Below are positions 27,253 to 38,286 of a DNA stretch of 64,000 nucleotides, piece by piece. Source of the stretch: an uncultured delta proteobacterium (GTDB lineage: Bacteria > Myxococcota_A > Polyangia > Polyangiales > B10-G4). Numbering within the stretch: position 1 is the stretch's first letter; the number at the start of each line of letters is the position of its first letter. The notes beneath the pieces were generated by a model. It was not told the DNA's origin, searched no databases, and worked only from the letters and a program-made list of their open reading frames with translations. The DNA is taken from positions 288,001 through 352,000 of the forward strand of contig CAVSGI010000008.1 in NCBI GenBank assembly GCA_963727445.1. The letters are read 5' to 3'. The translations under genes were made by a program, and so were the position numbers.

Positions 27253-28872
27253 ATGTCTCGCGCGCCTCGCCTCGGTGCTCTTCTGGCTCTGTCCCTCTTC
27301 TGTGCGTGCGGCGACGACGCCGCTCCACCAGGCGATTCCGGCGTGGACGACGGCGCTGCCGACGCGGCTGGCGACGCCGATGGCGAAGCACCGCCACCGC
27401 CCGTGGTGGAGACGCCCTCGGGCCCAGTGCAGGGCGAACAGGGTCTCGGCTACCTCCAGTTCCTCGGCATCCCCTACGCCGAGCCCCCAGTGGGCGATTC
27501 CCGCTGGGCGCCACCCGTCGCGCACGCCCCCTGGACCGAGCCCGTGGTGTCACAGCGACCGAGCTCGTGCCCCCAGGCGGCTTTCGGTCTCAACAGCGGC
27601 GCCGAGGATTGCCTCTACGTCAACGTCCACACCCCGGACCCGATGCCCGAGAACGCGCCGGTGATGGTGTGGATCCACGGAGGCGCGTACATCTTCGGCG
27701 AAGGCCTCCAGACCGACCTCGGTACCCGCGGCGACCTCCTCGCCAAGAACCACGGAGTGGTGGTGGTGAGCATGAACTACCGCCTCGGCGCTTTCGGCTT
27801 CTTCGTCCACGGTGACGAGGTCACCGGGAACTTCGGCATCCAGGACCAGCGCCTGGCCCTCGAGTGGGTGCAGTCGCACATCGCGTCCTTCGGCGGCGAC
27901 CCCGACAACGTCACCGTCTTCGGCGAGTCGGCCGGCGGGCAGAGCGTGTGCCTGCATCTGATGAGCCCCGACAGCCGCGGTCTCTTCGCCCGCGCCATCA
28001 GCGAGAGCGGCTTCTGTGCCCAGGCCCTGCCGACGATCGAGGAGATGCGCGCCATCAGCGATCCGCTGGTCGCGGCGCTCGGCTGCGACACGGAGGCCGA
28101 TCCTCTCGCTTGCATGCGGACGAAGACCCGCGACGAGATCATCGACGCGGACATCGCGCCGACCGGGATGAGCGCGCTGACAGCCGCCGGCAGCTGGTGG
28201 CCCAACGTCGACGGCACGGTGATCCCCGATCAGTTCGACGCATTGGTGGCGGCAGACGCGATCGCCGACGTGCCGACCGTCATCGGCTGGAACGCGAACG
28301 AGGGCACGCTCTTCGTGATGTTGGCGGAGCAGGCCGGCCTGGTCGTCGACGAGGCGGCCTACTCGGCGCAGATCGCCGGGCTCGCGTCGCGGACCGGTGT
28401 AGCGGCAGCCGACATCGAGGCGCAGTACCCACTGTCGGACTACCCCGACCCCGGAGCGGCCCTCGCTGCCGCGACCGGCGACGCCGCCATCGCCTGCCCC
28501 AGCCACCGCGCGGCGCGCTTGCTCGCGGACCGCGTCGAGACGCGGGTGTACCACTTCGAGTTTCCGGACGCGCCCTTCCAGCTGGGCGCCACCCGCGAGC
28601 TCGGGGCGTTCCACTCGGCCGAGATTCAGTACGTCTTCGGTCACCCGGCCCAGCTCGGTCTCACCGCCCACAGTGGAGACGACCTGACGCTCTTCGAAAC
28701 CATGAGCGGCTACTGGACGCGCTACGCGAAGACCGGCGATCCCAATGGCGCGGACGCCCCGATCGACTGGCCTCCATGGGACCTCACGAGCGAGCCCTAC
28801 CTCGCCCTCGACGTGTCGCCGACCACGGGCGAAGGCCCCGACCGCGACGCTTGCGTTCTGTGGAACCCCTAG
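27253..28872 (+). CDS. Type-B carboxylesterase family lipoprotein
   Basis: FLGIPYAEPP, EDCLYVNV, WIHGG, GESAG nucleophile, NANE and FHSAE motifs. Confidence 0.93.
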   Translation: MSRAPRLGALLALSLFCACGDDAAPPGDSGVDDGAADAAGDADGEAPPPPVVETPSGPVQGEQGLGYLQFLGIPYAEPPVGDSRWAPPVAHAPWTEPVVSQRPSSCPQAAFGLNSGAEDCLYVNVHTPDPMPENAPVMVWIHGGAYIFGEGLQTDLGTRGDLLAKNHGVVVVSMNYRLGAFGFFVHGDEVTGNFGIQDQRLALEWVQSHIASFGGDPDNVTVFGESAGGQSVCLHLMSPDSRGLFARAISESGFCAQALPTIEEMRAISDPLVAALGCDTEADPLACMRTKTRDEIIDADIAPTGMSALTAAGSWWPNVDGTVIPDQFDALVAADAIADVPTVIGWNANEGTLFVMLAEQAGLVVDEAAYSAQIAGLASRTGVAAADIEAQYPLSDYPDPGAALAAATGDAAIACPSHRAARLLADRVETRVYHFEFPDAPFQLGATRELGAFHSAEIQYVFGHPAQLGLTAHSGDDLTLFETMSGYWTRYAKTGDPNGADAPIDWPPWDLTSEPYLALDVSPTTGEGPDRDACVLWNP

Positions 28873-28888
28873 TGCCTGGTCCAATGAC
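28867..28888 (+). repeat. 22-bp dispersed repeat, copy 1
   Basis: CCCTAGTGCCTGGTCCAATGAC, identical to 54309-54330. It begins at the TAG stop of the esterase. Confidence 0.85.
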
Positions 28889-29065
28889 GTAGAAGGGTTC
28901 TCGCTCGTTCGTCGGCCGCCTCGCGGCGTCGGGAAACCTCGAATGTGCGCTAGCCTCTTCGAGGTTGCCAGCAAAGCGCGGTACGGACATCATGGCCCCG
29001 ATCGGCGAGGCACCTCTTTTGGGGTAGTCTCGCGGGCCGTGACTCCTGGGGGGGGCGCTGACCCC

Positions 29066-30862
<1,797 letters not shown>

Positions 30863-30866
<4 letters not shown>

Positions 30867-31228
30867 CGCACAAGATCCTCATCGTCGACGACAACGACCT
30901 GAACCTCGAGCTGGCAACCCAGCTCCTCGAGGACGACTACGAAGTCCAGACGGCGACGAATGGACAGGAGGCGCTGGACGTGGCGGCGGAGTTCCGCCCC
31001 GACCTCGTCCTGATGGACCTCTCGATGCCGGTGATGGACGGCTGGGAAGCGACCACACGCCTCCGGGGCAATCCGGTTCACAAGGACCTGAAGATCCTGG
31101 CGCTCACCGCGCACGCCGTGCAGTCGGAAATCGAGCGGGCTCTGGCGTGTGGCTGCGACGGCTACGTCACCAAGCCCATCGACGATGACCTCCTGTTACG
31201 AGAAATCGGTACTCTCTTGAGTCAGTGA
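30863..31228 (+). CDS. Single-domain response regulator
   Basis: IVDDN, LMDLSMPVMDG, ALTA and TKP motifs. ATGA overlap with the kinase. Confidence 0.93.
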
Positions 31229-32172
31229 TGGCCTCCGGCAGCACCCGACCTCCTGACGATGCCCCCGCCAAGATCCTCGTAGTCGACGATGTCGAGGCGA
31301 ACCGCGAGCTCGTCGCCCAGGATCTCGAAGAGGTCGGCTACGAAGTCCGCACCTGTGCCAGCGGAAAGGAATGTCTCGAGATCGGGAAGTCCTGGCGGCC
31401 CGAGGTGATCCTCCTCGACATCCAGATGCCGGTGATGGACGGGATCGAGACCTGCCGGGCGCTCAAAGCGGACCCCAAGACCCGCGACATCCCGGTCCTC
31501 TTCCTGACGGCCACGCGCACGGACGAGGAGTCCGTGGTCGAAGGCCTGACGGTCGGAGCCAACGACTACATCCCGAAGCCCTATGCGGTGCCGATCCTCA
31601 ATGCGCGGGTTTCGACCCAGGTGACCATCGCGAGGCAGACGCGCCGCCTGTCGGAGATGGCGATGCGCGACGAGCTGACCGGCCTCTTCAGCCGGCGTTT
31701 CCTCTTCACGTCGATGGAGCGGATCTTTCACACCCAGACGCGGGGGACCTCGCGATCGCTGGCAGCGCTCATCGTGGACGTCGACCATTTCAAGAAGGTC
31801 AACGACAGCCTGGGACACCTCGAAGGTGATCGGGTCTTGAAGGCGGTCGCTTCCGCCATCACCTCCGCGACGCGCGACGCCGACGTGGTCGCGCGTTACG
31901 GCGGCGAAGAGTTCGTGGTGGTGCTGCCGCAAACCGACGCCGGTGGCGCGGCGGTGGTGGGCGAGCACGTGCGCAAAGCCATCGAAGAGCGATGCGCTCC
32001 GGTCACGGCCAGCGTGGGCGCCGCGGCAGCCACCATGATCTCCGACGACGGGACCGGCTGGCGCAACCCTCGAGAGGTGATCGTCGAGGCCCTCGGGCGG
32101 GCGGACGAGGCGCTCTACGAAGCGAAAGCGAGCGGGCGCAACAAAGTCGTCCTGCATTCGCGCGACGCGTAG
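31228..32172 (+). CDS. Response regulator diguanylate cyclase (REC-GGDEF)
   Basis: REC domain, DELTGL, DVDHFKKVND, RDAD I-site and GGEEF active site. Confidence 0.95.
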   Translation: MASGSTRPPDDAPAKILVVDDVEANRELVAQDLEEVGYEVRTCASGKECLEIGKSWRPEVILLDIQMPVMDGIETCRALKADPKTRDIPVLFLTATRTDEESVVEGLTVGANDYIPKPYAVPILNARVSTQVTIARQTRRLSEMAMRDELTGLFSRRFLFTSMERIFHTQTRGTSRSLAALIVDVDHFKKVNDSLGHLEGDRVLKAVASAITSATRDADVVARYGGEEFVVVLPQTDAGGAAVVGEHVRKAIEERCAPVTASVGAAAATMISDDGTGWRNPREVIVEALGRADEALYEAKASGRNKVVLHSRDA

Positions 32173-32189
32173 AAAGAAAACGCCCGACG

Positions 32190-34047
32190 GAAAAGCAGAG
32201 GGGCGACCCTTTCGGATCGCCCCTCTTGGAAAGTCGTCGTTGGTGCATGTCGTCTTTCGAACGACTGGGACCGTTTTTCGCGGCCCGCGCACCATGTGGA
32301 TGCGAGTTACGTCGCACCCACGGTGACCGTCATCATGTGGGCTCACCGCTTCTTGCCGCCGTCGGTTGGAGCTCCTCTCGAAGCTTCCTCCCTGTTTGAC
32401 CAGTTCGCGCTGGTGGCGTGCGCGGGGGATGGGGCTATTCGCCGTCACCCGCTTCGATCGTCTCCAGTGATGACCCCACGAGAGGAGCGCATTCGAAAAT
32501 AAACTCTTCGCGGTCTGTGGCCCCCCTCCGTTGCTCTGCGCCACGGTGACTTCTCAGTCCCGTTGCACCTCGAGGTAGCCTTGTCCATCACGGCCCGATC
32601 TCTGACGTTTCATGTCGCTCCGCAGGTGCCGTGTACGAGCTTCTCGCGCCCGCACCCGATCTCCGTTCACCCCGCATCCCCGAAGGGTGCGTCGGCCGTC
32701 GGACCTGCTTCGCCAGACACGGTCGTCACCCGCCCTTGTTTAAGGGGCGAGCGCGTCGCCGCGCCGAAACGCCTTCCGTCGTCCATCGGTCCTTCGAGCG
32801 TAGCTCGAAGTGCAGCTTCGACTTTCTCCTGGCCTGGAGAAACATCGGAGCTCCCGCACCCGTTTCACATCGAAGACTCACCCGCGACCGCGTCGAACGT
32901 TTCGCGAGCTCTCTTCGCTGCTAGCGCATCCCGACCACACGACCCTTTCGAGCCGCCCGGAGGATGTGCAAGGGGCACGTCGTGGCGACGTTTGCAGCCC
33001 ACATTCTTCAGTTTTCAACGACGCTCATCCACGTCTCGTGCAGCTACCGTTTCGCTCGGGGACCGAAATCCCTCTGCTCTCCGGTCGAGCGTACCGTTCA
33101 CGGCGGAACGCTCGGCTTCGGCGGACCGGTCGTAGCGGTGAAGCCTTTTCGACTCCGTTTTCCCGCCCGTTTCCGGCCGAACCTCTGACGCCCCGTCGTC
33201 TCCGCCTCGGATCGGGCGCCCTTTCGGGACCTTCTCCTTCGCTTCGACCTAGCCCGCTTCTACCGCCTCCCCGTGAGGGCGACGGCTTGTTCCCGGACCG
33301 GGACGCCTCCACCGACAAGACCTCCGAAGAGGTGCTTTCGAAGCGACGCCTCTCGACGCCTCTCGATGACCCGATGCTCTTCACCTTGGATCCTTCGGAC
33401 CCTCCGCTAGACGGTTTCACGTTCGCGACTCTCGCCGCTCTCGCTCCCCCGCCAGGCATCGCCTGTCGGCTTGTGCAGCTTTTCAAAGACACGACCCGCG
33501 GACAAATCCGCGATTCCGATCCCCGTGTCCGGTGTTTCGGACGTTGGGTGACGTGCTCCGGGACGAGCCCGAAACCGCCAGCCGAGTGTCGCCTCGCGAG
33601 GAGCGCCAGCCTCCGCCAGCACCTAGCCCCGCTCGCCGACTTTCCCGAGCATCCGTGTCGCCTCCCCGAATCCCGAGGGCCGAGAAGGTCCCTCGTACCA
33701 TCGAAAAGGCCAAGGCCCCGCTTTGCAACGCGCCCCGCGAAGGGCGCATCTAGGCTGCGGACCGGATGCCTTCCACCATCGACCCTCGGGTGCGTCCGAG
33801 CCCCTTTTCAGAGCCCGCCCGCGTCACTCCCGAATCGTCCTTCCCGTGACTGTTGCCACCCACGAGACGGCGATGCCTCTTGTGCCTCCCAGAGCCGCCC
33901 ACCTTCGACGGGCATCACGACCTCGGAAGACTCGACCGACCCATCAGAGCGCGAGAGCCTCGCTACCCCTCTGAACCGCCCGCAGCATCTCGACAGCTTC
34001 TGCGACCGTGGAATCTCGCGAACTCACGTACCGCGACCTTCCGAGAG
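32190..34047 (-). ncRNA. Candidate large (~1.85 kb) structured non-coding RNA or RNA operon, family not recognised
   Basis: No ORF with host-like composition. Dense hairpins with minus-strand C(UUCG)G and GNRA loops, internal homologous modules, a flanking promoter-like element and a terminator. Boundaries are approximate. Confidence 0.65.
32191..32226 (-). terminator. Rho-independent terminator on the minus strand
   Basis: Minus strand reads AGAGGGGCGATCC-GAAA-GGGTCGCCCCTCT (13-bp stem with one U.G wobble) then GCTTTT. On the plus strand the wobble becomes a C/A mismatch and no T-tract follows. Confidence 0.8.
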
Positions 34048-34049
34048 TC

Positions 34050-34078
34050 TTTATGCCGGAACCGCCAACTCTCTGCAA
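34050..34078 (-). promoter_or_regulatory. Putative sigma70-type promoter for the candidate RNA
   Basis: Minus strand TTGCAG (34078-34073), 17 nt, CATAAA (34055-34050), with A/T tracts upstream (34080-34110). The -10 match is imperfect. Confidence 0.45.
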
Positions 34079-34106
34079 CAAGAAAATGCGCCTCAATGCT
34101 CTTTTT

Positions 34107-34159
34107 TTATCCACAGCGGCACCCCTGAACTATCCACAGCTATCCACAGCCACTCCACA
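34107..34159 (+). promoter_or_regulatory. Cluster of DnaA-box-like sites
   Basis: TTATCCACA (34107-34115, perfect consensus), CTATCCACA (34130-34138 and 34140-34148) and degenerate CACTCCACA (34151-34159), all co-oriented. Confidence 0.7.
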
Positions 34160-34378
34160 AAGGGGCTATCACTAGGGGTTTTTGAGCGGAACACCAACGC
34201 CGACCGCTGTGCAGACCTCGGACATTGGCGTGCTTGATACCAATCTTCTCCAATTGTTTTTCGCCCGTGAATAGCGTTTGAGTCGTGCACGCAACCGGAG
34301 CCTCGGAGCGGTCGCTCAGCCCTGAAAGCCGTGGGTTTTCGCTACGCACGGGGGCGTGGCTTTCGTTTCGGCAAAGGG

Positions 34379-35803
34379 TCAACGCCCTCGGCGTCGAAGC
34401 ACCAAGAGCACGGCTAGGAGCAATGCGCCGCGAGGCAACGCCCCCACGGGCTCCGCAGCGAGAGTAGAGGTGTCGCAGCCGCTGCTCCGTTCCGCATGCG
34501 TCGGTGTCGCCGGCACGACCGCCGCCGCCTCGGCGTCAGGGACGTGTTCGGCCTCGGGGGTCGTCGTTTCCGGCCCGGGCGGTGGCTCGGGGCGCCGGAT
34601 CAGCGACTCCGGGAGCCAGCCTTCGCGCCCGAAGAGGTCGCGCACCCGGACCATGTCGCCGCGCGTCTCGAGCTCGCGCAGCAGGAACCCGCCCTTGATG
34701 GTGCCGAGGCTCTCGGCGCTTTCCTCCAGGGATGCGCGCAGCTCGCCCTCGCCCTCGGCGCGCAGCTGAAAGTGGCTGAGCAGCACGTCGTTCTCGCGCC
34801 GCTTGGTGATGATCACGTTCGAGATCAGCTGTTGCATCGCGAACGCACCCGCGACGTGGCCCACGCGCACATCGTCGAGACCGCGACCCCGAAGCTCTTC
34901 CACGTCGTCGTCGCTCAGGCCGAGGTCGCGCGCGAAGGCGCTGCCCCGCGCGCGGTCGCGCGCCGAGGCGAGGCGCGACTGCTGTAGGTAGAAGTGACTG
35001 GTGGTGTGCAGCACCCGGCCCTCCCCTTCCACGAAGGTCACGGCGATGGCCGCCTGACCGTAGCGACGCCGCATCTCGTCGCTGGTCAGCAGCACCTCCA
35101 CGCGGCGCGGGTCGAGCACGCGGATCGGATAGCTCGAAGACTCGAGCCACCAGCGGAGCTCGTCGCTGGTCCCCTGCACGTTGTCCATGAAGGGATGGTC
35201 CTGGTCGAGCACCTCGACGGTGACGACGTCGTTGCCGGTGTCGCGCCCGCCGCGGCGGATCGTCTCGGGGAAGGCGCGCGTCGCGAGGCGCAAGGCCCAG
35301 TCGGTGGTCACCAGGAAGCCCCCCGTCTCCACGAAGCGCCGGAGCTTGTCCACGCCGGCCCGGCTCATGTTCCCCGGGCAGTTCACCATCACCGTCTGGG
35401 TGCTCATCAGCGGCAGCTGCGCCACCAGGCGGGGCGGGAGCACCACGTGGTCCGTCTCCAGCGCCGTCAGAACGTCCTGGACCCGATCGAAGGTGCCGCG
35501 GACGACGATCACCTCGGCCTGGCGTGCGTTTTCGAGGAGCTCGAGATCGTGGGGCCGCGACGAGCGCAAGCGCCGGCGCACCAGTTGAGACGCGACCGAG
35601 TTCGCCTGGCGCATCTCCTCTGAACCGAGCGTCCCCGTGGCGTTGCCGTCAGTCGCCTGACGCCGCGCCCGCGCCGGCATCGCCTGGTAGGCGTTGTCCA
35701 TGAAGTACTGCTCTTCGGCGGCCTGAGCCCCCACCAGCGCCGGCGCCGCGCCCCACAAGAGGCTCGTCGCGACGGCGCACCCCACCAGGTGTCGCATCGT
35801 CAT
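34379..35803 (-). CDS. Exported protein with MYXO-CTERM-like sorting signal
   Basis: Signal peptide from ATG 35803, a GATase-like-fold segment (LRRFVETGGFLVTTDWAL), and C-terminal SSGC...ALLLAVLLVLRRRGR. Confidence 0.75.
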   Translation of the reverse strand: MTMRHLVGCAVATSLLWGAAPALVGAQAAEEQYFMDNAYQAMPARARRQATDGNATGTLGSEEMRQANSVASQLVRRRLRSSRPHDLELLENARQAEVIVVRGTFDRVQDVLTALETDHVVLPPRLVAQLPLMSTQTVMVNCPGNMSRAGVDKLRRFVETGGFLVTTDWALRLATRAFPETIRRGGRDTGNDVVTVEVLDQDHPFMDNVQGTSDELRWWLESSSYPIRVLDPRRVEVLLTSDEMRRRYGQAAIAVTFVEGEGRVLHTTSHFYLQQSRLASARDRARGSAFARDLGLSDDDVEELRGRGLDDVRVGHVAGAFAMQQLISNVIITKRRENDVLLSHFQLRAEGEGELRASLEESAESLGTIKGGFLLRELETRGDMVRVRDLFGREGWLPESLIRRPEPPPGPETTTPEAEHVPDAEAAAVVPATPTHAERSSGCDTSTLAAEPVGALPRGALLLAVLLVLRRRGR

Positions 35804-35845
35804 GGGGGGTGCGACGGGTGGGATCCGCCGAGGATCTAGAGGAAG

Positions 35846-36670
35846 ATGCCGGCCATGAGTGAAGGAAGAGCTGGCCAGGGAGAGGGCCAGAGAATTGCCC
35901 TGGTGACGGGCGGAACCGGCGCCATCGGGGAGGCCATCGTGCGCGGGCTCTGTGCGCGGGGGTTTTCGGTCATCACCACCGCCCGCAGCGAGGCCAAAGG
36001 AGCGGCGACGACCAAACGCATCCAAGAAGCCGTTCCGGGCGCCGAGGTTCGCGCGCTCCAGGGAGACGTGAGCACGGCGGCGGGCGTGACCGACCTCCGC
36101 GCCCACGTCGACGGTCCCCTCCACGTCCTCGTCAACAACGCCGCCGAGTGCCCGAAGCGTCGCGAAGAGACCGAGGAGGGCGTCGAGCGCCAATGGGCCA
36201 CGAACGTCCTCGGCTACTACCGGATGATCCTCGCCTTCGAGGACCTGCTCGCGGCGTCCGCGCCCGCGCGGGTGGTGAACGTGGCGAGCTACTGGGCGGG
36301 CGGCCTCGACCTCGACGATCCCGAGTTCGTGGAGCGGCGCTACGACAACGACAGCGCCTACCGGCAGAGCAAACAGGCAGATCGCATGATCACCGCGGGG
36401 CTCGCCGAGCGCCTCGCGACGAAGGGGATCACCATCAACGCCTGTCACCCCGGCGACGTCCCCAGCAAGCTCGCGCGCGATCTCGGCTTCGGCGGCTCCT
36501 CCACCCCAGAGCAGGGGGCGGCGACGCCCCTCTTCCTCGCCGCCGACGCGAGCGTGGAGGGCGAGACCGGCGGGTACTATGCGCGCTCGCGTCGCGAGGA
36601 CGATCCCTTCACTCGCGATCCCGCAGAGGTCGAGCGGCTCCTGCTACTCTGCGCCTCCTACGCTCGATGA
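35846..36670 (+). CDS. SDR family oxidoreductase (retinol dehydrogenase-like)
   Basis: TGGTGAIG, NNA, VVNVAS, YRQSK and HPG motifs. Confidence 0.9.
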   Translation: MPAMSEGRAGQGEGQRIALVTGGTGAIGEAIVRGLCARGFSVITTARSEAKGAATTKRIQEAVPGAEVRALQGDVSTAAGVTDLRAHVDGPLHVLVNNAAECPKRREETEEGVERQWATNVLGYYRMILAFEDLLAASAPARVVNVASYWAGGLDLDDPEFVERRYDNDSAYRQSKQADRMITAGLAERLATKGITINACHPGDVPSKLARDLGFGGSSTPEQGAATPLFLAADASVEGETGGYYARSRREDDPFTRDPAEVERLLLLCASYAR

Positions 36671-38286
36671 TTCGGCTCGACTCGGTCTCCAAACAACACG
36701 GCTCCCAGATCCTCTTCCTCGAGGCGTCGATGAGCGTCTTCAAGGGCGAGAAGGTCGGCCTCGTCGGCCCGAACGGCGCCGGCAAGTCCACCATCTTCCG
36801 CATGATGGTCGGCGAGGAGCAGCCCGACGCGGGCCGCGTCGTCCGCGAGAAGAACCTGACGATCGGCTACTTCGACCAGAACGTGGGCGAGATGAGCGGG
36901 CGTTCGGTGGTGGCCGAGACCATCGCCGGCGCAGGCGAGGTCGCCGAGCTCATGGCCGAGCTCCGCACCCTCGAAGCCAGGATGGCCGACCCTTCCCACG
37001 CCGACGAGCTCGAAAGGGCGATCGAACGATTCGGCGAAGTCCAGGCGCGCTTCGACGAGCTCGATGGCTACGGGCTCGAAGCCCGCGCGCGCGAGATCCT
37101 CGCCGGCCTCGCCTTCCCCGAAGCGCGGGTCGACCGCGACGTCGGCGAGCTCTCGGGCGGCTGGAAGATGCGCGTCGCGCTGGCGCGCATCCTGTTGATG
37201 CGGCCCGACGTGCTCCTGCTCGACGAGCCGACGAACCACCTCGACATCGAGTCGATCGTCTGGCTCGAAGGCTTCCTGCGCGACTTCGAGGGCGCGTTGG
37301 TCATCACCTCCCACGACCGCGATTTCTTGAACCGACTGGTCACGAAGATCGTGGAGATCGACGGCGGCGAGCTCACCACCTACAGCGGCGACTACGACTT
37401 CTACGAGCAGCAGCGCGCGCTCGCGGACGCGCAGCAGGAGGCGCAGTTCGCACGCCAGCAGGCGATGCTCGCCAAGGAGAAGGCCTTCATCGCGCGCTTC
37501 AAGGCGCGCGCCAGCCACGCGGCGCAGGTGCAGTCACGAGTGAAGAAGCTCGACAAGATCGACAAGATCGAGCCGCCCAAGCGGCGCAAGGTGGTCCAGT
37601 TCGAGTTCCGCGAGCCGCCGCGCTCGGGTGACGACGTCGTCCAGCTCGACCACGTGCACAAGGCCTACGGCGACCACGTGATCTACGACGACTTCGATTT
37701 CCTGATCCGGCGCCGCGAGCGCTGGTGCGTGATGGGCGTCAACGGCGCCGGCAAGTCGACGCTGCTCAAGCTGGTCGCGGGCGCTACCGAGCCGGACACG
37801 GGTGAGGTGGTGGTCGGGGCCAGCGTGAAGATGGGCTACTTCGCGCAGCACGCGATGGAGGTCCTCGATCCCCAGAAGACCGTCTTCGAGTCCCTCCTCG
37901 ATGAGCACCCGCGCGCCTCCATCGGTCAGCTCCGCACCCTCGCGGGCGCCTTCGGCTTCAGCGGAGACGAGGCCGACAAGCCCTGCCGCGTGCTGTCCGG
38001 CGGCGAGAAGGCGCGCCTGGTCCTCGCCCGCATGCTCTACGACCCGCCGAACTTCCTCGTCCTCGACGAGCCCACCAACCACCTGGATCTCGCGACCAAG
38101 GAGATGCTGGTGGAGGCGCTCCGCGACTTTCAGGGGACGATGCTCTTCGTCTCCCACGACCGCGAGTTCCTCCGCGGGCTCGGCACGCGCGTCCTCGAGC
38201 TCACGCCCGAGGGCGTGCATCGCTACGAGGGCAGCTACGCCGAATACGTCGAGCAGACCGGACACGAGGCCCCCGGGATCGGCTGA
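36667..38286 (+). CDS. ABC-F family ATPase
   Basis: Two ABC domains (GPNGAGKST, LSGGW, DEPTNHLD; GVNGAGKST, LSGGE, DEPTNHLD) and no TM segments. ATG 36667 overlaps the SDR stop. Confidence 0.95.
   Translation: MIRLDSVSKQHGSQILFLEASMSVFKGEKVGLVGPNGAGKSTIFRMMVGEEQPDAGRVVREKNLTIGYFDQNVGEMSGRSVVAETIAGAGEVAELMAELRTLEARMADPSHADELERAIERFGEVQARFDELDGYGLEARAREILAGLAFPEARVDRDVGELSGGWKMRVALARILLMRPDVLLLDEPTNHLDIESIVWLEGFLRDFEGALVITSHDRDFLNRLVTKIVEIDGGELTTYSGDYDFYEQQRALADAQQEAQFARQQAMLAKEKAFIARFKARASHAAQVQSRVKKLDKIDKIEPPKRRKVVQFEFREPPRSGDDVVQLDHVHKAYGDHVIYDDFDFLIRRRERWCVMGVNGAGKSTLLKLVAGATEPDTGEVVVGASVKMGYFAQHAMEVLDPQKTVFESLLDEHPRASIGQLRTLAGAFGFSGDEADKPCRVLSGGEKARLVLARMLYDPPNFLVLDEPTNHLDLATKEMLVEALRDFQGTMLFVSHDREFLRGLGTRVLELTPEGVHRYEGSYAEYVEQTGHEAPGIG

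Follow-up and report, generated by a model that had tools for sequence, protein, structure and literature searches.

Evidence for a new family of giant structured RNAs in the Polyangiales (Myxococcota)

Introduction

The closest described systems are the large bacterial non-coding RNAs OLE, GOLLD and ROOL, which span 0.6-0.85 kilobases (kb), with 659 nucleotides (nt) for ROOL and just over 800 nt for GOLLD. ROOL can match 16S ribosomal RNA (rRNA) in abundance, and GOLLD and ROOL are phage-borne and lie near transfer RNA (tRNA) islands (PMC12286853). Outside the ribosome, even the largest structured RNAs yet reported from bacteria fall well short of 1 kb, and they too have no assigned function (PMC12286853). 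The subject of this analysis is a locus on the minus strand of a 64-kb window, the whole stretch of DNA analysed (C8:288001-352000), from the 9.47-Mb genome of an uncultured member of the Polyangiales (27 contigs, 85.6% complete). The locus, at 32191-34043 in window coordinates, very probably encodes a genuine giant RNA that is structured and expressed and that represents a new family; in this genome it is about 1,850 nt long.

Like OLE, GOLLD and ROOL, the Polyangiales RNA is long, elaborately folded, non-coding and found by covariation. Unlike them, it matches no Rfam model and is two to three times longer (1.8-2.9 kb); unlike GOLLD and ROOL, it is chromosomal and single-copy, has no tRNA genes nearby, and possesses a DnaA-box promoter and a boxA-like element. 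Because the RNA is conserved, covaries and occurs in RNA libraries at 1.8-2.9 kb, the size range of such RNAs is more than doubled and, if this reading is true, no larger structured RNA would be known from bacteria apart from rRNA. Its hosts, soil and sediment bacteria of one order, are myxobacteria, a group notable for exceptionally large genomes and a complex way of life. Open-access full text and bioRxiv, as searched here, gave no description of an RNA of this kind from Myxococcota, and its reads in sediment, salt-marsh and mangrove metatranscriptomes may currently go unassigned. Two handles on its biology are the DnaA-box array at the promoter and a boxA element outside the usual rRNA-operon setting.

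Results

Location and strand of the RNA

About 2.2 kb of the window (32173-34378) is without a credible reading frame, the open reading frames (ORFs) there being short or unconserved. This gap is bounded by the stops of two genes, a response-regulator/GGDEF gene at 31225-32172 on the plus strand (Pfam: Response_reg and GGDEF) and a hypothetical gene at 34379-36448 on the minus strand. A first-pass annotation, made without database searches, had taken the gap to be non-coding and had proposed that its minus strand encodes a giant non-coding RNA, or else a polycistronic RNA precursor, of an unrecognised class. The first claim is upheld by the Pfam result, the loss of GC3 periodicity and the lack of a conserved ORF described below; the second is supported by the negative Rfam search, by covariation, by homologues and by contigs from RNA libraries.

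32191..34043, minus strand: RNA, about 1.85 kb; G 37%, C 27%, A 20%, T 15%.

The start at about 34043 is estimated from the position of the -10 hexamer, and the end lies at about 32191; the ends first predicted, 34047 and 32190, are within a few bases of these. The minus strand is taken as the sense strand on the basis of folding energies, tetraloop sequences, G.U pairs, promoter and terminator. For its two halves the folding energies are -443.8 and -428.3 kcal/mol (z -2.46 and -5.20 relative to dinucleotide shuffles), compared with -337.6 and -379.9 kcal/mol (z +0.34 and -3.30) for the halves of the plus strand. Between about 32300 and about 34250 the plus strand has a strongly negative GC skew, so that the minus strand is G-rich.

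At gathering score, Rfam 15 gave no family across the 64-kb window, its models for OLE, GOLLD, ROOL, group II introns, RNase P, tmRNA and 6S included. A permissive search (E ≤10) of 31900-34600 returned two weak, unrelated sub-threshold matches, both outside the body of the RNA, and eight other family members searched at E ≤1 returned nothing relevant. The small- and large-subunit (SSU/LSU) rRNA models had no match in the window; model RF00177 locates the true 16S gene at C21:691464-693023. ARAGORN found no tRNA or transfer-messenger RNA (tmRNA) gene at the locus. The Burkholderia small RNA ncS16 gave a sub-threshold match at 34370-34451 on the minus strand (24.2 bits, where the gathering score is 48; E 0.087). 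This match extends over the 3' end of the upstream gene 34379-36448 and is probably due to chance.

Conserved and covarying structure

Homologues, which the first-pass annotation had proposed to seek in Myxococcota, were found in Polyangiales, and the helices they share covary. The main alignment contains five close homologues with 71% column identity. The RNAalifold consensus, computed with a maximum pairing span of 400 nt, comprises 572 pairs; these form 86 helices, arranged in 13 top-level helical domains. In these pairs 88.9% of cells are paired, against 40-44% when the partners are slid by 1-3 columns, and 203 pairs show changes on both sides, against 52-59 when slid; none of 500 shuffles reached these values. 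The consensus energy is -1104.5 kcal/mol in the sense direction and -862.9 kcal/mol for the antisense, reverse-complement alignment. Twelve conservation-preserving column shuffles gave -773.6±13.3 kcal/mol, with 98.5±8.6 two-sided pairs compared with 200 in the real alignment. The antisense and column-shuffle controls were added because the structure was predicted on the alignment that was scored, an objection that these and the slid-partner control answer only in part.

The model of one domain, R2 (32789-32592, 60 pairs), was built from five sequences only. It finds the domain at full length, on the sense strand and at the matching place in 13 further loci (E 2e-18 to 8e-6). In the resulting 25-row alignment 88.7% of cells are paired, against 38-42% when slid, and 54 of the 60 pairs have changed on both sides, against 19-26 when slid.

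The hairpins listed in the first-pass annotation are all present in the sequence and in the consensus fold of the five homologues, and compensating changes preserve most of them. The stem at 33320-33333 is kept through the changes CCUC/GAGG, CCC/GGG, GCUC/GAGC and CCCC/GGGG, and the one at 32674-32690 changes its stem while retaining UUCG or GAAA-type loops. The hairpin at 32296-32321 (helix 82) has 12 pairs, five of them changed on both sides, and a conserved GACGUA loop; those at 33497-33512, 32792-32810 and 32823-32842 are conserved. CCC-GAAA-GGG (33218-33230) is present as described, at a variable, indel-rich spot. An 8-bp inverted repeat (34038-34045/33922-33929) that had been thought to close a domain at the start is not supported: homologues do not preserve the 3' arm, and in the consensus folds the 5' end has other partners. 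The signature of stable tetraloops is borne out by CUUCGG, the most over-represented hexamer in 22 representative members (97 observed, 22.1 expected). Over the first 164 nt of 29 members RNAalifold predicted no more than 11 pairs, since MAFFT did not align the variable inserts in that part.

Among the five close homologues the loop of the hairpin at 32823-32842 is GGCC in three, while the other two have GCGC and GGCA; in distant members this hairpin could not be aligned, and the idea of a palindromic kissing loop is left as a lead. Self-complementary loops that switch between palindromes are a published signature of kissing-loop homo-oligomers in OLE and GOLLD (PMC12286853).

Occurrence in RNA libraries

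The 13 public runs with the largest share of sampled words from the RNA are all metatranscriptomes, with shares of 0.77-0.17. Sediment runs lead (0.77, 0.70 and 0.61), followed by salt marsh (0.54, 0.46 and 0.35) and mangrove (0.30 and lower); the four DNA runs listed have shares of at most 0.17. Contigs of four metatranscriptome runs from three studies were placed on 30200-36200, and runs with a share below 0.2 were not used.

Contigs at 99% identity or more cover 32233-34037, and one contig of 1,714 nt spans 32337-34032, almost the entire RNA, with 11 differences. The predicted transcript is thus represented in RNA libraries, as the first-pass annotation had suggested checking, its strand being only inferred. 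Other contigs, with 90-95% identity over conserved blocks, represent related RNAs in the same libraries. Contigs stop at 34019-34037 (three studies) and at 32233 (one), which is only consistent with the predicted ends; the loose contig ends at these stops resemble sequencing adapters. In the flanks (30200-32209 and 34220-36200) word depth is 0-1.6; uncovered parts prove nothing and were not used as evidence.

Architecture of the RNA

In the alignment of 29 members the stems vary, while short purine-rich stretches at the domain borders are fixed. The fixed stretches are GAAGKUCGCGG in the leader, UCGYAGAAGCC, GGUGGAAGGCAC, ACGUCAGAG (twice), CCGAAGC (twice) and ACGGAAGGCGUU. The purine-rich junctions GGAAGGC, CGUCAGAG and CGAAGC are invariable where the stems change by compensating substitutions, and several of the fixed stretches are paired strands of domain-closing helices, for example GGCGUUUC/GAAACGUC (helix 57). 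The principal elements, from 5' to 3', are as follows.

34015..34045, minus strand: 5' leader GGAAGGUCGCGG...; GAAG, C79-C81 and adjoining columns invariant in 29 sequences.
33992..34007, minus strand: conserved block UCGCAGAAGCY (29-member alignment).
33760..33779, minus strand: junction block GGUGGAAGGCAC between domains 2 and 3 (29 sequences).
33120..33307, minus strand: repeat unit 1, a domain closed by GGCGUCC/GGGGCGUC, then AGAGG, a helix and CCGAAGC (helices 32 and 39).
32456..32773, minus strand: repeat unit 2, a domain closed by GGCGUUUC/GAAACGUC (32773-32604), then AGAG, a helix and UCGAAGC (32602-32456) (helices 57 and 67).
32336..32343, minus strand: 3' strand of a long-range helix, AGCCCACA, which pairs with UGUGGGCU at 33003-32996.
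32229..32240, minus strand: 3' strand of the terminal helix, directly before the terminator, which pairs with 34042-34033 in the unrestricted fold.

The unit of closed domain, AGAG, helix and GAAGC occurs twice (33307-33120 and 32773-32456), which points to an internal domain duplication in the modelled structure. In five of 32 sources R2 has a further match in unit 1, some 580 nt upstream of the first, and conserved blocks lie in or near this unit at 33192-33176 and 33125-33110. Without the span limit the consensus energy is -1153 kcal/mol and long-range helices appear, which close three large domains. The leader forms a local hairpin (helix 1) in the 400-nt-span model, whereas in the unrestricted one it supplies the 5' half of the terminal helix. 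As read from the sequences of the 29 members, the two strands of the terminal helix change together: UCGAAGGUC/GACCUUCGA, AUGAAGUUC/GAACUUCAU and GGAAGUU/GACUUCC. In the helix UGUGGGCU/AGCCCACA a G-C pair becomes A-U in the second copy of this genome (on contig C23) and in that of the same-genus genome G001. The predicted pairing of the 5' end with the stretch immediately ahead of the terminator has counterparts in many stable RNAs.

The purine-rich, GGA-containing motifs repeated between hairpins are reminiscent of the CsrB/RsmZ sponges. Unlike these, the RNA is about five times longer, and its GGA motifs form or flank covarying domain-closing helices. A sponge for CsrA or Hfq was considered and set aside; neither family (PF02599 for CsrA) was found in this genome, whose 85.63% completeness means that absence is not proven.

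A boxA-like element within the transcript

About 1,030 nt into the RNA, directly downstream of a hairpin (ACGAGAC..GCUCGU), lies a boxA-like element.

33007..33045, minus strand: hairpin and boxA-like element GAGCGUCGUUGAAAACUGAA (33026-33007); UGUGGGCU follows at 33003-32996.

The genome contains the 12-mer TTGAAAACTGAA only three times: once in the 16S leader (C21:691298, sense) and once in each copy of the RNA. The equivalent in the organism's 16S-23S spacer is GCTCTTTGAAAACAGAA / GCTCTTTGAAAAC / GCUCUUUGAAAACAGAA, and all three other family-bearing genomes whose 16S was found have leaders with CCTTGAAAACTGA / CCUUGAAAACUGA. The arrangement expected of an rrn-type element, a small hairpin followed by a boxA that resembles the one in the rRNA leader or spacer of the organism, is found in the RNA. 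The consensus of boxA is UGCUCUUUAACA in E. coli and AUGAUCUUUGAAA in B. subtilis; boxA follows a small hairpin in rrn leaders, occurs also upstream of 23S, and loads NusB:S10, giving an antitermination complex that blocks Rho (PMC13753749).

A gene for NusB is present in the genome (C3:17613-17987). The element is the same as that in the rRNA leader and spacer; the predicted boxA of the RNA probably loads NusB/S10, which would let a long untranslated transcript finish; the UUGAAAAC element would do so from mid-transcript. A second element, UUUGAAAAGCUGCA at 33474-33487, occurs only in the window and C23 copies, with a deletion at this place in G023, G001 and G005. UUGAAAA elements that resemble it are found near +780 in L043 and L047.

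Further likenesses to rrn transcripts are a strong promoter with an upstream A-tract, abundant UUCG and GNRA loops, domain-closing long-range helices and end-to-end pairing, in addition to the hairpin and boxA-like sequence with 12 nt identical to the organism's own 16S leader. Unlike rrn transcripts, the RNA matches no SSU or LSU model, has no tRNA genes, and carries its boxA-like element about 1,030 nt in and not in all members.

These likenesses bear on the strongest of the alternatives, that the transcript is a precursor cut into at least two smaller stable RNAs, as an rRNA operon is, with the hairpin and boxA marking a spacer. The mid-transcript position of the element recalls the 16S-23S spacer, the long-range helices that close the three large domains resemble rRNA processing stems, and the domain organisation is modular and duplicated; in two of the runs the contigs are fragmented and depth is uneven along the RNA. 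Yet the 1,714-nt contig crosses all domains and the boxA-like element, the pairing of 5' and 3' ends fits one molecule, and the contig breaks coincide with strain variants. We regard a precursor as improbable.

Promoter, DnaA-box array and terminator

The elements that frame the transcript are the following.

34151-34159, minus strand: weaker box TGTGGAgTg (34159-34151), identified from the sequence.
34107..34148, minus strand: DnaA-box-like array of three 9-mers in sense orientation, TGTGGATAg (34148-34140), TGTGGATAg (34138-34130) and a perfect TGTGGATAA (34115-34107).
34050..34110, minus strand: promoter region with A-tract (34110-34102), T-tract, -35 TTGCAG (34078-34073), 17-nt spacer and -10 CATAAA (34055-34050).
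32187..32226, minus strand: intrinsic terminator, a 13-pair stem (nine G-C) with a GAAA loop (32226-32197) and the tail GCUUUUCCGU (32196-32187).

The promoter is conserved in the 29 aligned members, with -35 columns T36, T37 and G38 invariant. Its family form is TTGCNN, 16-17 nt and a -10 hexamer, which is CATAAA here; relatives have better -10 hexamers (TAGTAT, TAATAT) at the same distance. The claim that the RNA has its own promoter stands as far as these family-conserved sigma-70-type elements are concerned, but a strict consensus scan makes no call. A terminator specific to the minus strand had been placed at 32191-32226, and the terminator scan puts the stem at 32226-32197. Five of its pairs (helix 86) have changed on both sides, and terminators of -21 to -35 kcal/mol occur 1,760-2,890 nt past the leader in 29 of 31 loci; of the two others, one is cut by a contig end and in one none was found.

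Perfect copies of the 9-mer TTATCCACA, the DnaA box, number eight in the 9.47-Mb genome, and three of them are at the two copies of the RNA. The array is one of only two clusters in the genome with at least three relaxed boxes. The other, of three relaxed boxes in mixed orientation, lies at C15:112860-112960, about 200 kb from dnaA (C15:317194). All 29 loci of the family have at least one box with at most one mismatch, 24 have at least two, and 20 have a perfect one. The boxes are all sense-oriented and about 10-12 bp apart, at about -64, -76, -87, -97, -108, -120 and -131, with a density of 14.5 per kb there and 0.02 per kb in the remainder of the loci. A strong sigma-70-type promoter with an A-tract would have ahead of it an array of DnaA boxes in helical phase. 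Because the array precedes the promoter, DnaA probably sets the rate at which the RNA is transcribed, as judged from the box consensus.

Several boxes in one orientation, about 11 bp apart upstream of a promoter, are also a feature of DnaA-box clusters outside oriC, such as E. coli datA/DARS and DnaA-regulated promoters. Unlike datA/DARS, the array is fixed to one giant RNA gene across the order, and DnaA binding is here a prediction.

The array raises the possibility that the functional unit is the DNA, a DnaA-binding locus (a secondary origin or a titration site like datA/DARS) whose transcript is incidental or an aid to opening. The cluster is the densest of DnaA-box-like sequences in the genome, phased and in one orientation in 29/29 loci, an A/T-rich stretch adjoins it, and the G-rich transcript could form R-loops. 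Against this, the GC skew of C8 has no turn at the locus, dnaA lies elsewhere and the genome has two copies; moreover, the compensating changes over 1.8-2.9 kb, the sense-specific stability, the UUCG loops and the conserved terminator would all be left unexplained. We consider this explanation very improbable.

The origin of replication itself was considered separately. A box cluster beside an A/T-rich region, as in oriC, is found at the locus. This candidate was rejected on three observations: the cumulative GC skew of C8 is negative on both sides of 320 kb, with no turn; dnaA is on another contig (C15); and the genome holds two copies of the RNA. Elsewhere on C8, outside the window, GC skew turns from positive to negative near 40 kb, two more perfect DnaA boxes lie at C8:5027 and C8:19540, and several A/T-rich stretches occur between 14 and 35 kb. 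Possible readings of C8:1-40000 are an origin or a terminus of replication, a foreign island, and a misjoin.

Lack of coding capacity

None of the 15 ORFs of at least 60 amino acids (aa) inside or overlapping the gap matched a Pfam family, and the comparison of homologous loci gave no ORF common to them. Periodicity in GC3 is strong in the flanking genes and is lost for 2-3 kb right after the leader in all 22 related loci plotted, the sense strand being G-rich across the same region. Of the 466 indels in pairwise comparisons of the five closest sequences, 82 have a length divisible by 3, and mismatches are equally frequent in the three phases. The check on coding proposed by the first-pass annotation was thus negative for both protein families and a conserved frame. 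A decayed or unusual protein gene, or an mRNA for small proteins, is scarcely credible on this evidence, despite an open plus-strand ORF of 475 aa (32810-34237) and minus-strand ORFs of up to 155 aa; this verdict draws on Pfam and on comparison, the large protein databases not having been searched with the ORFs.

Distribution and genomic setting

Among the genomes searched, relatives of the RNA are known only from Polyangiales. A second copy in the same genome, on the 34-kb contig C23 (G000:C23:11979-13907), has 65% identity to the window copy (32186-34160), and full-length relatives are present in three other genomes. The first 150 nt or so are recognisable more widely, with a blastn match in 36 of 401 genomes of the order. 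R1, a covariance model of promoter and leader built from 29 sequences, matches 32 of 151 genomes of the order; 31 of the 32 have one copy and only the window genome has two. Several of the matched genomes are near-complete (G123, G097 and G137 among them). Sampled genomes of other orders of the class gave no match to R1, and the matches in that search (5/151) were all in Polyangiales. Relatives are 1.8-2.9 kb long, the 29 members trimmed from leader to terminator measuring 1,779-2,903 nt, and G exceeds C and A exceeds T in all 29.

The C23 copy is nearer to the copy of G001, from the same genus (about 76% identity), than to the window copy (about 60% in this comparison). The window copy may accordingly be an old paralogue or a transfer, or it may lie on a contig that was binned here but stems from another organism.

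A pattern scan of named genomes gave at least 119 stretches, most of them chance matches in other phyla, as the information content of the pattern predicted; it therefore says nothing on the total distribution. Among the matches listed, boxes together with the leader (judged by eye) occurred only in Myxococcota loci, and the family members were labelled Labilithrix, Polyangiales, Polyangiaceae, Sandaracinaceae and 'Myxococcales' metagenome-assembled genomes. A cruder filter passed L064, L071 and L149, plus one chance match, L066.

Flanking genes vary between loci. An all-against-all comparison of 93 ORFs from 29 loci found synteny at genus level only. A conserved neighbour or partner gene was looked for and rejected, Pfam on 29 flanking ORFs giving unrelated functions (FadL-like, MscS, ExbD, LigB, DprA, peptidase M24 and others).

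Two divergent copies in the window genome and a patchy spread in the order might suggest that the RNA belongs to a mobile element. It could then be a group II intron that lacks an ORF, the RNA of a retroelement, or an RNA carried by a phage or plasmid, the known giant RNAs GOLLD and ROOL being phage-borne (PMC12286853). This explanation is hardly tenable given no match to an Rfam intron or other model, no tRNA or tmRNA, no blastn match in 72,556 plasmid or 50,697 phage records, ordinary chromosomal genes as window neighbours, where integrase or reverse transcriptase was not seen, a single copy in 31/32 genomes, and the RNA's own promoter and terminator.

Proposed role

The explanation that we consider likely overall is a free-standing gene for a giant structured non-coding RNA, with synthesis probably of the DnaA/boxA type and, more tentatively, a role as a scaffold. 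The RNA would not be a regulator of neighbouring genes; it would be a stable scaffold that organises proteins, or copies of the RNA, into a large particle. This proposal takes its lead from the rRNA-style promoter with boxA, the pairing of the ends, the dense tetraloops, the fixed junctions among variable stems, the single copy and the lack of a link to any neighbour. A scaffold for a large ribonucleoprotein or RNA-only assembly is offered tentatively, being the weakest step of the interpretation and one that draws on features of the RNA and its gene. It is likewise possible, and somewhat doubtful, that an RNA of rRNA size and rRNA-like build is the core of an undiscovered ribonucleoprotein or RNA-only particle, with the DnaA array coupling its synthesis to the replication cycle.

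Several observations weigh against the interpretation given here. The library contigs give no strand, ends or abundance relative to other genes. The structure was predicted and scored on the same five-sequence alignment and the 25-row domain alignment was fitted to its own model, both of which inflate the paired fraction. Only 32 of 151 genomes were matched, so that either the family is not universal or R1 is too narrow. The strict sigma-70 consensus scan found no site in 32000-34500, and DnaA binding to the 9-mers is inferred from the consensus only. By a simple regular expression the boxA-like element is present in 17 of 29 members and degenerate or missing in 12, and it lies mid-transcript, not near the start. 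The RNA-binding domain of Rho was not found in the 85.6%-complete genome, which makes the need for antitermination hypothetical.

Neighbouring genes

Signalling genes at 28745-32172 on the plus strand converge on the terminator of the RNA; they encode a hybrid histidine kinase, two single-domain response regulators and the response-regulator/GGDEF cyclase. Two genes upstream of the RNA, and divergent from it, is an ABC-F type ATPase (36148-38283, plus strand) with two ABC_tran domains and ABC_tran_Xtn, which was not seen beside the RNA at other loci. ABC-F proteins are often ribosome-associated.

Five loci from two families (the C23 copy and those of G001, G115, G163 and G192) have, immediately upstream of the DnaA-box array and in divergent orientation, a gene for a membrane-anchored protein of about 170-205 aa; the protein has no Pfam match, and its gene does not occur at the window copy. 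Its coordinates are as follows.

L002 (G000:C23:14069-14530): membrane-anchored protein.
L006:776-1402: membrane-anchored protein.
L035:5212-5823: membrane-anchored protein.
L040:2213-2830: membrane-anchored protein.
L039: as L040.

Judged by eye, a D...(D/E)xK-like motif in the protein (PDFLV...YVADAKTG...TRRQLLEY...GVLLVD) is suggestive of a nuclease fold of the PD-(D/E)xK type.

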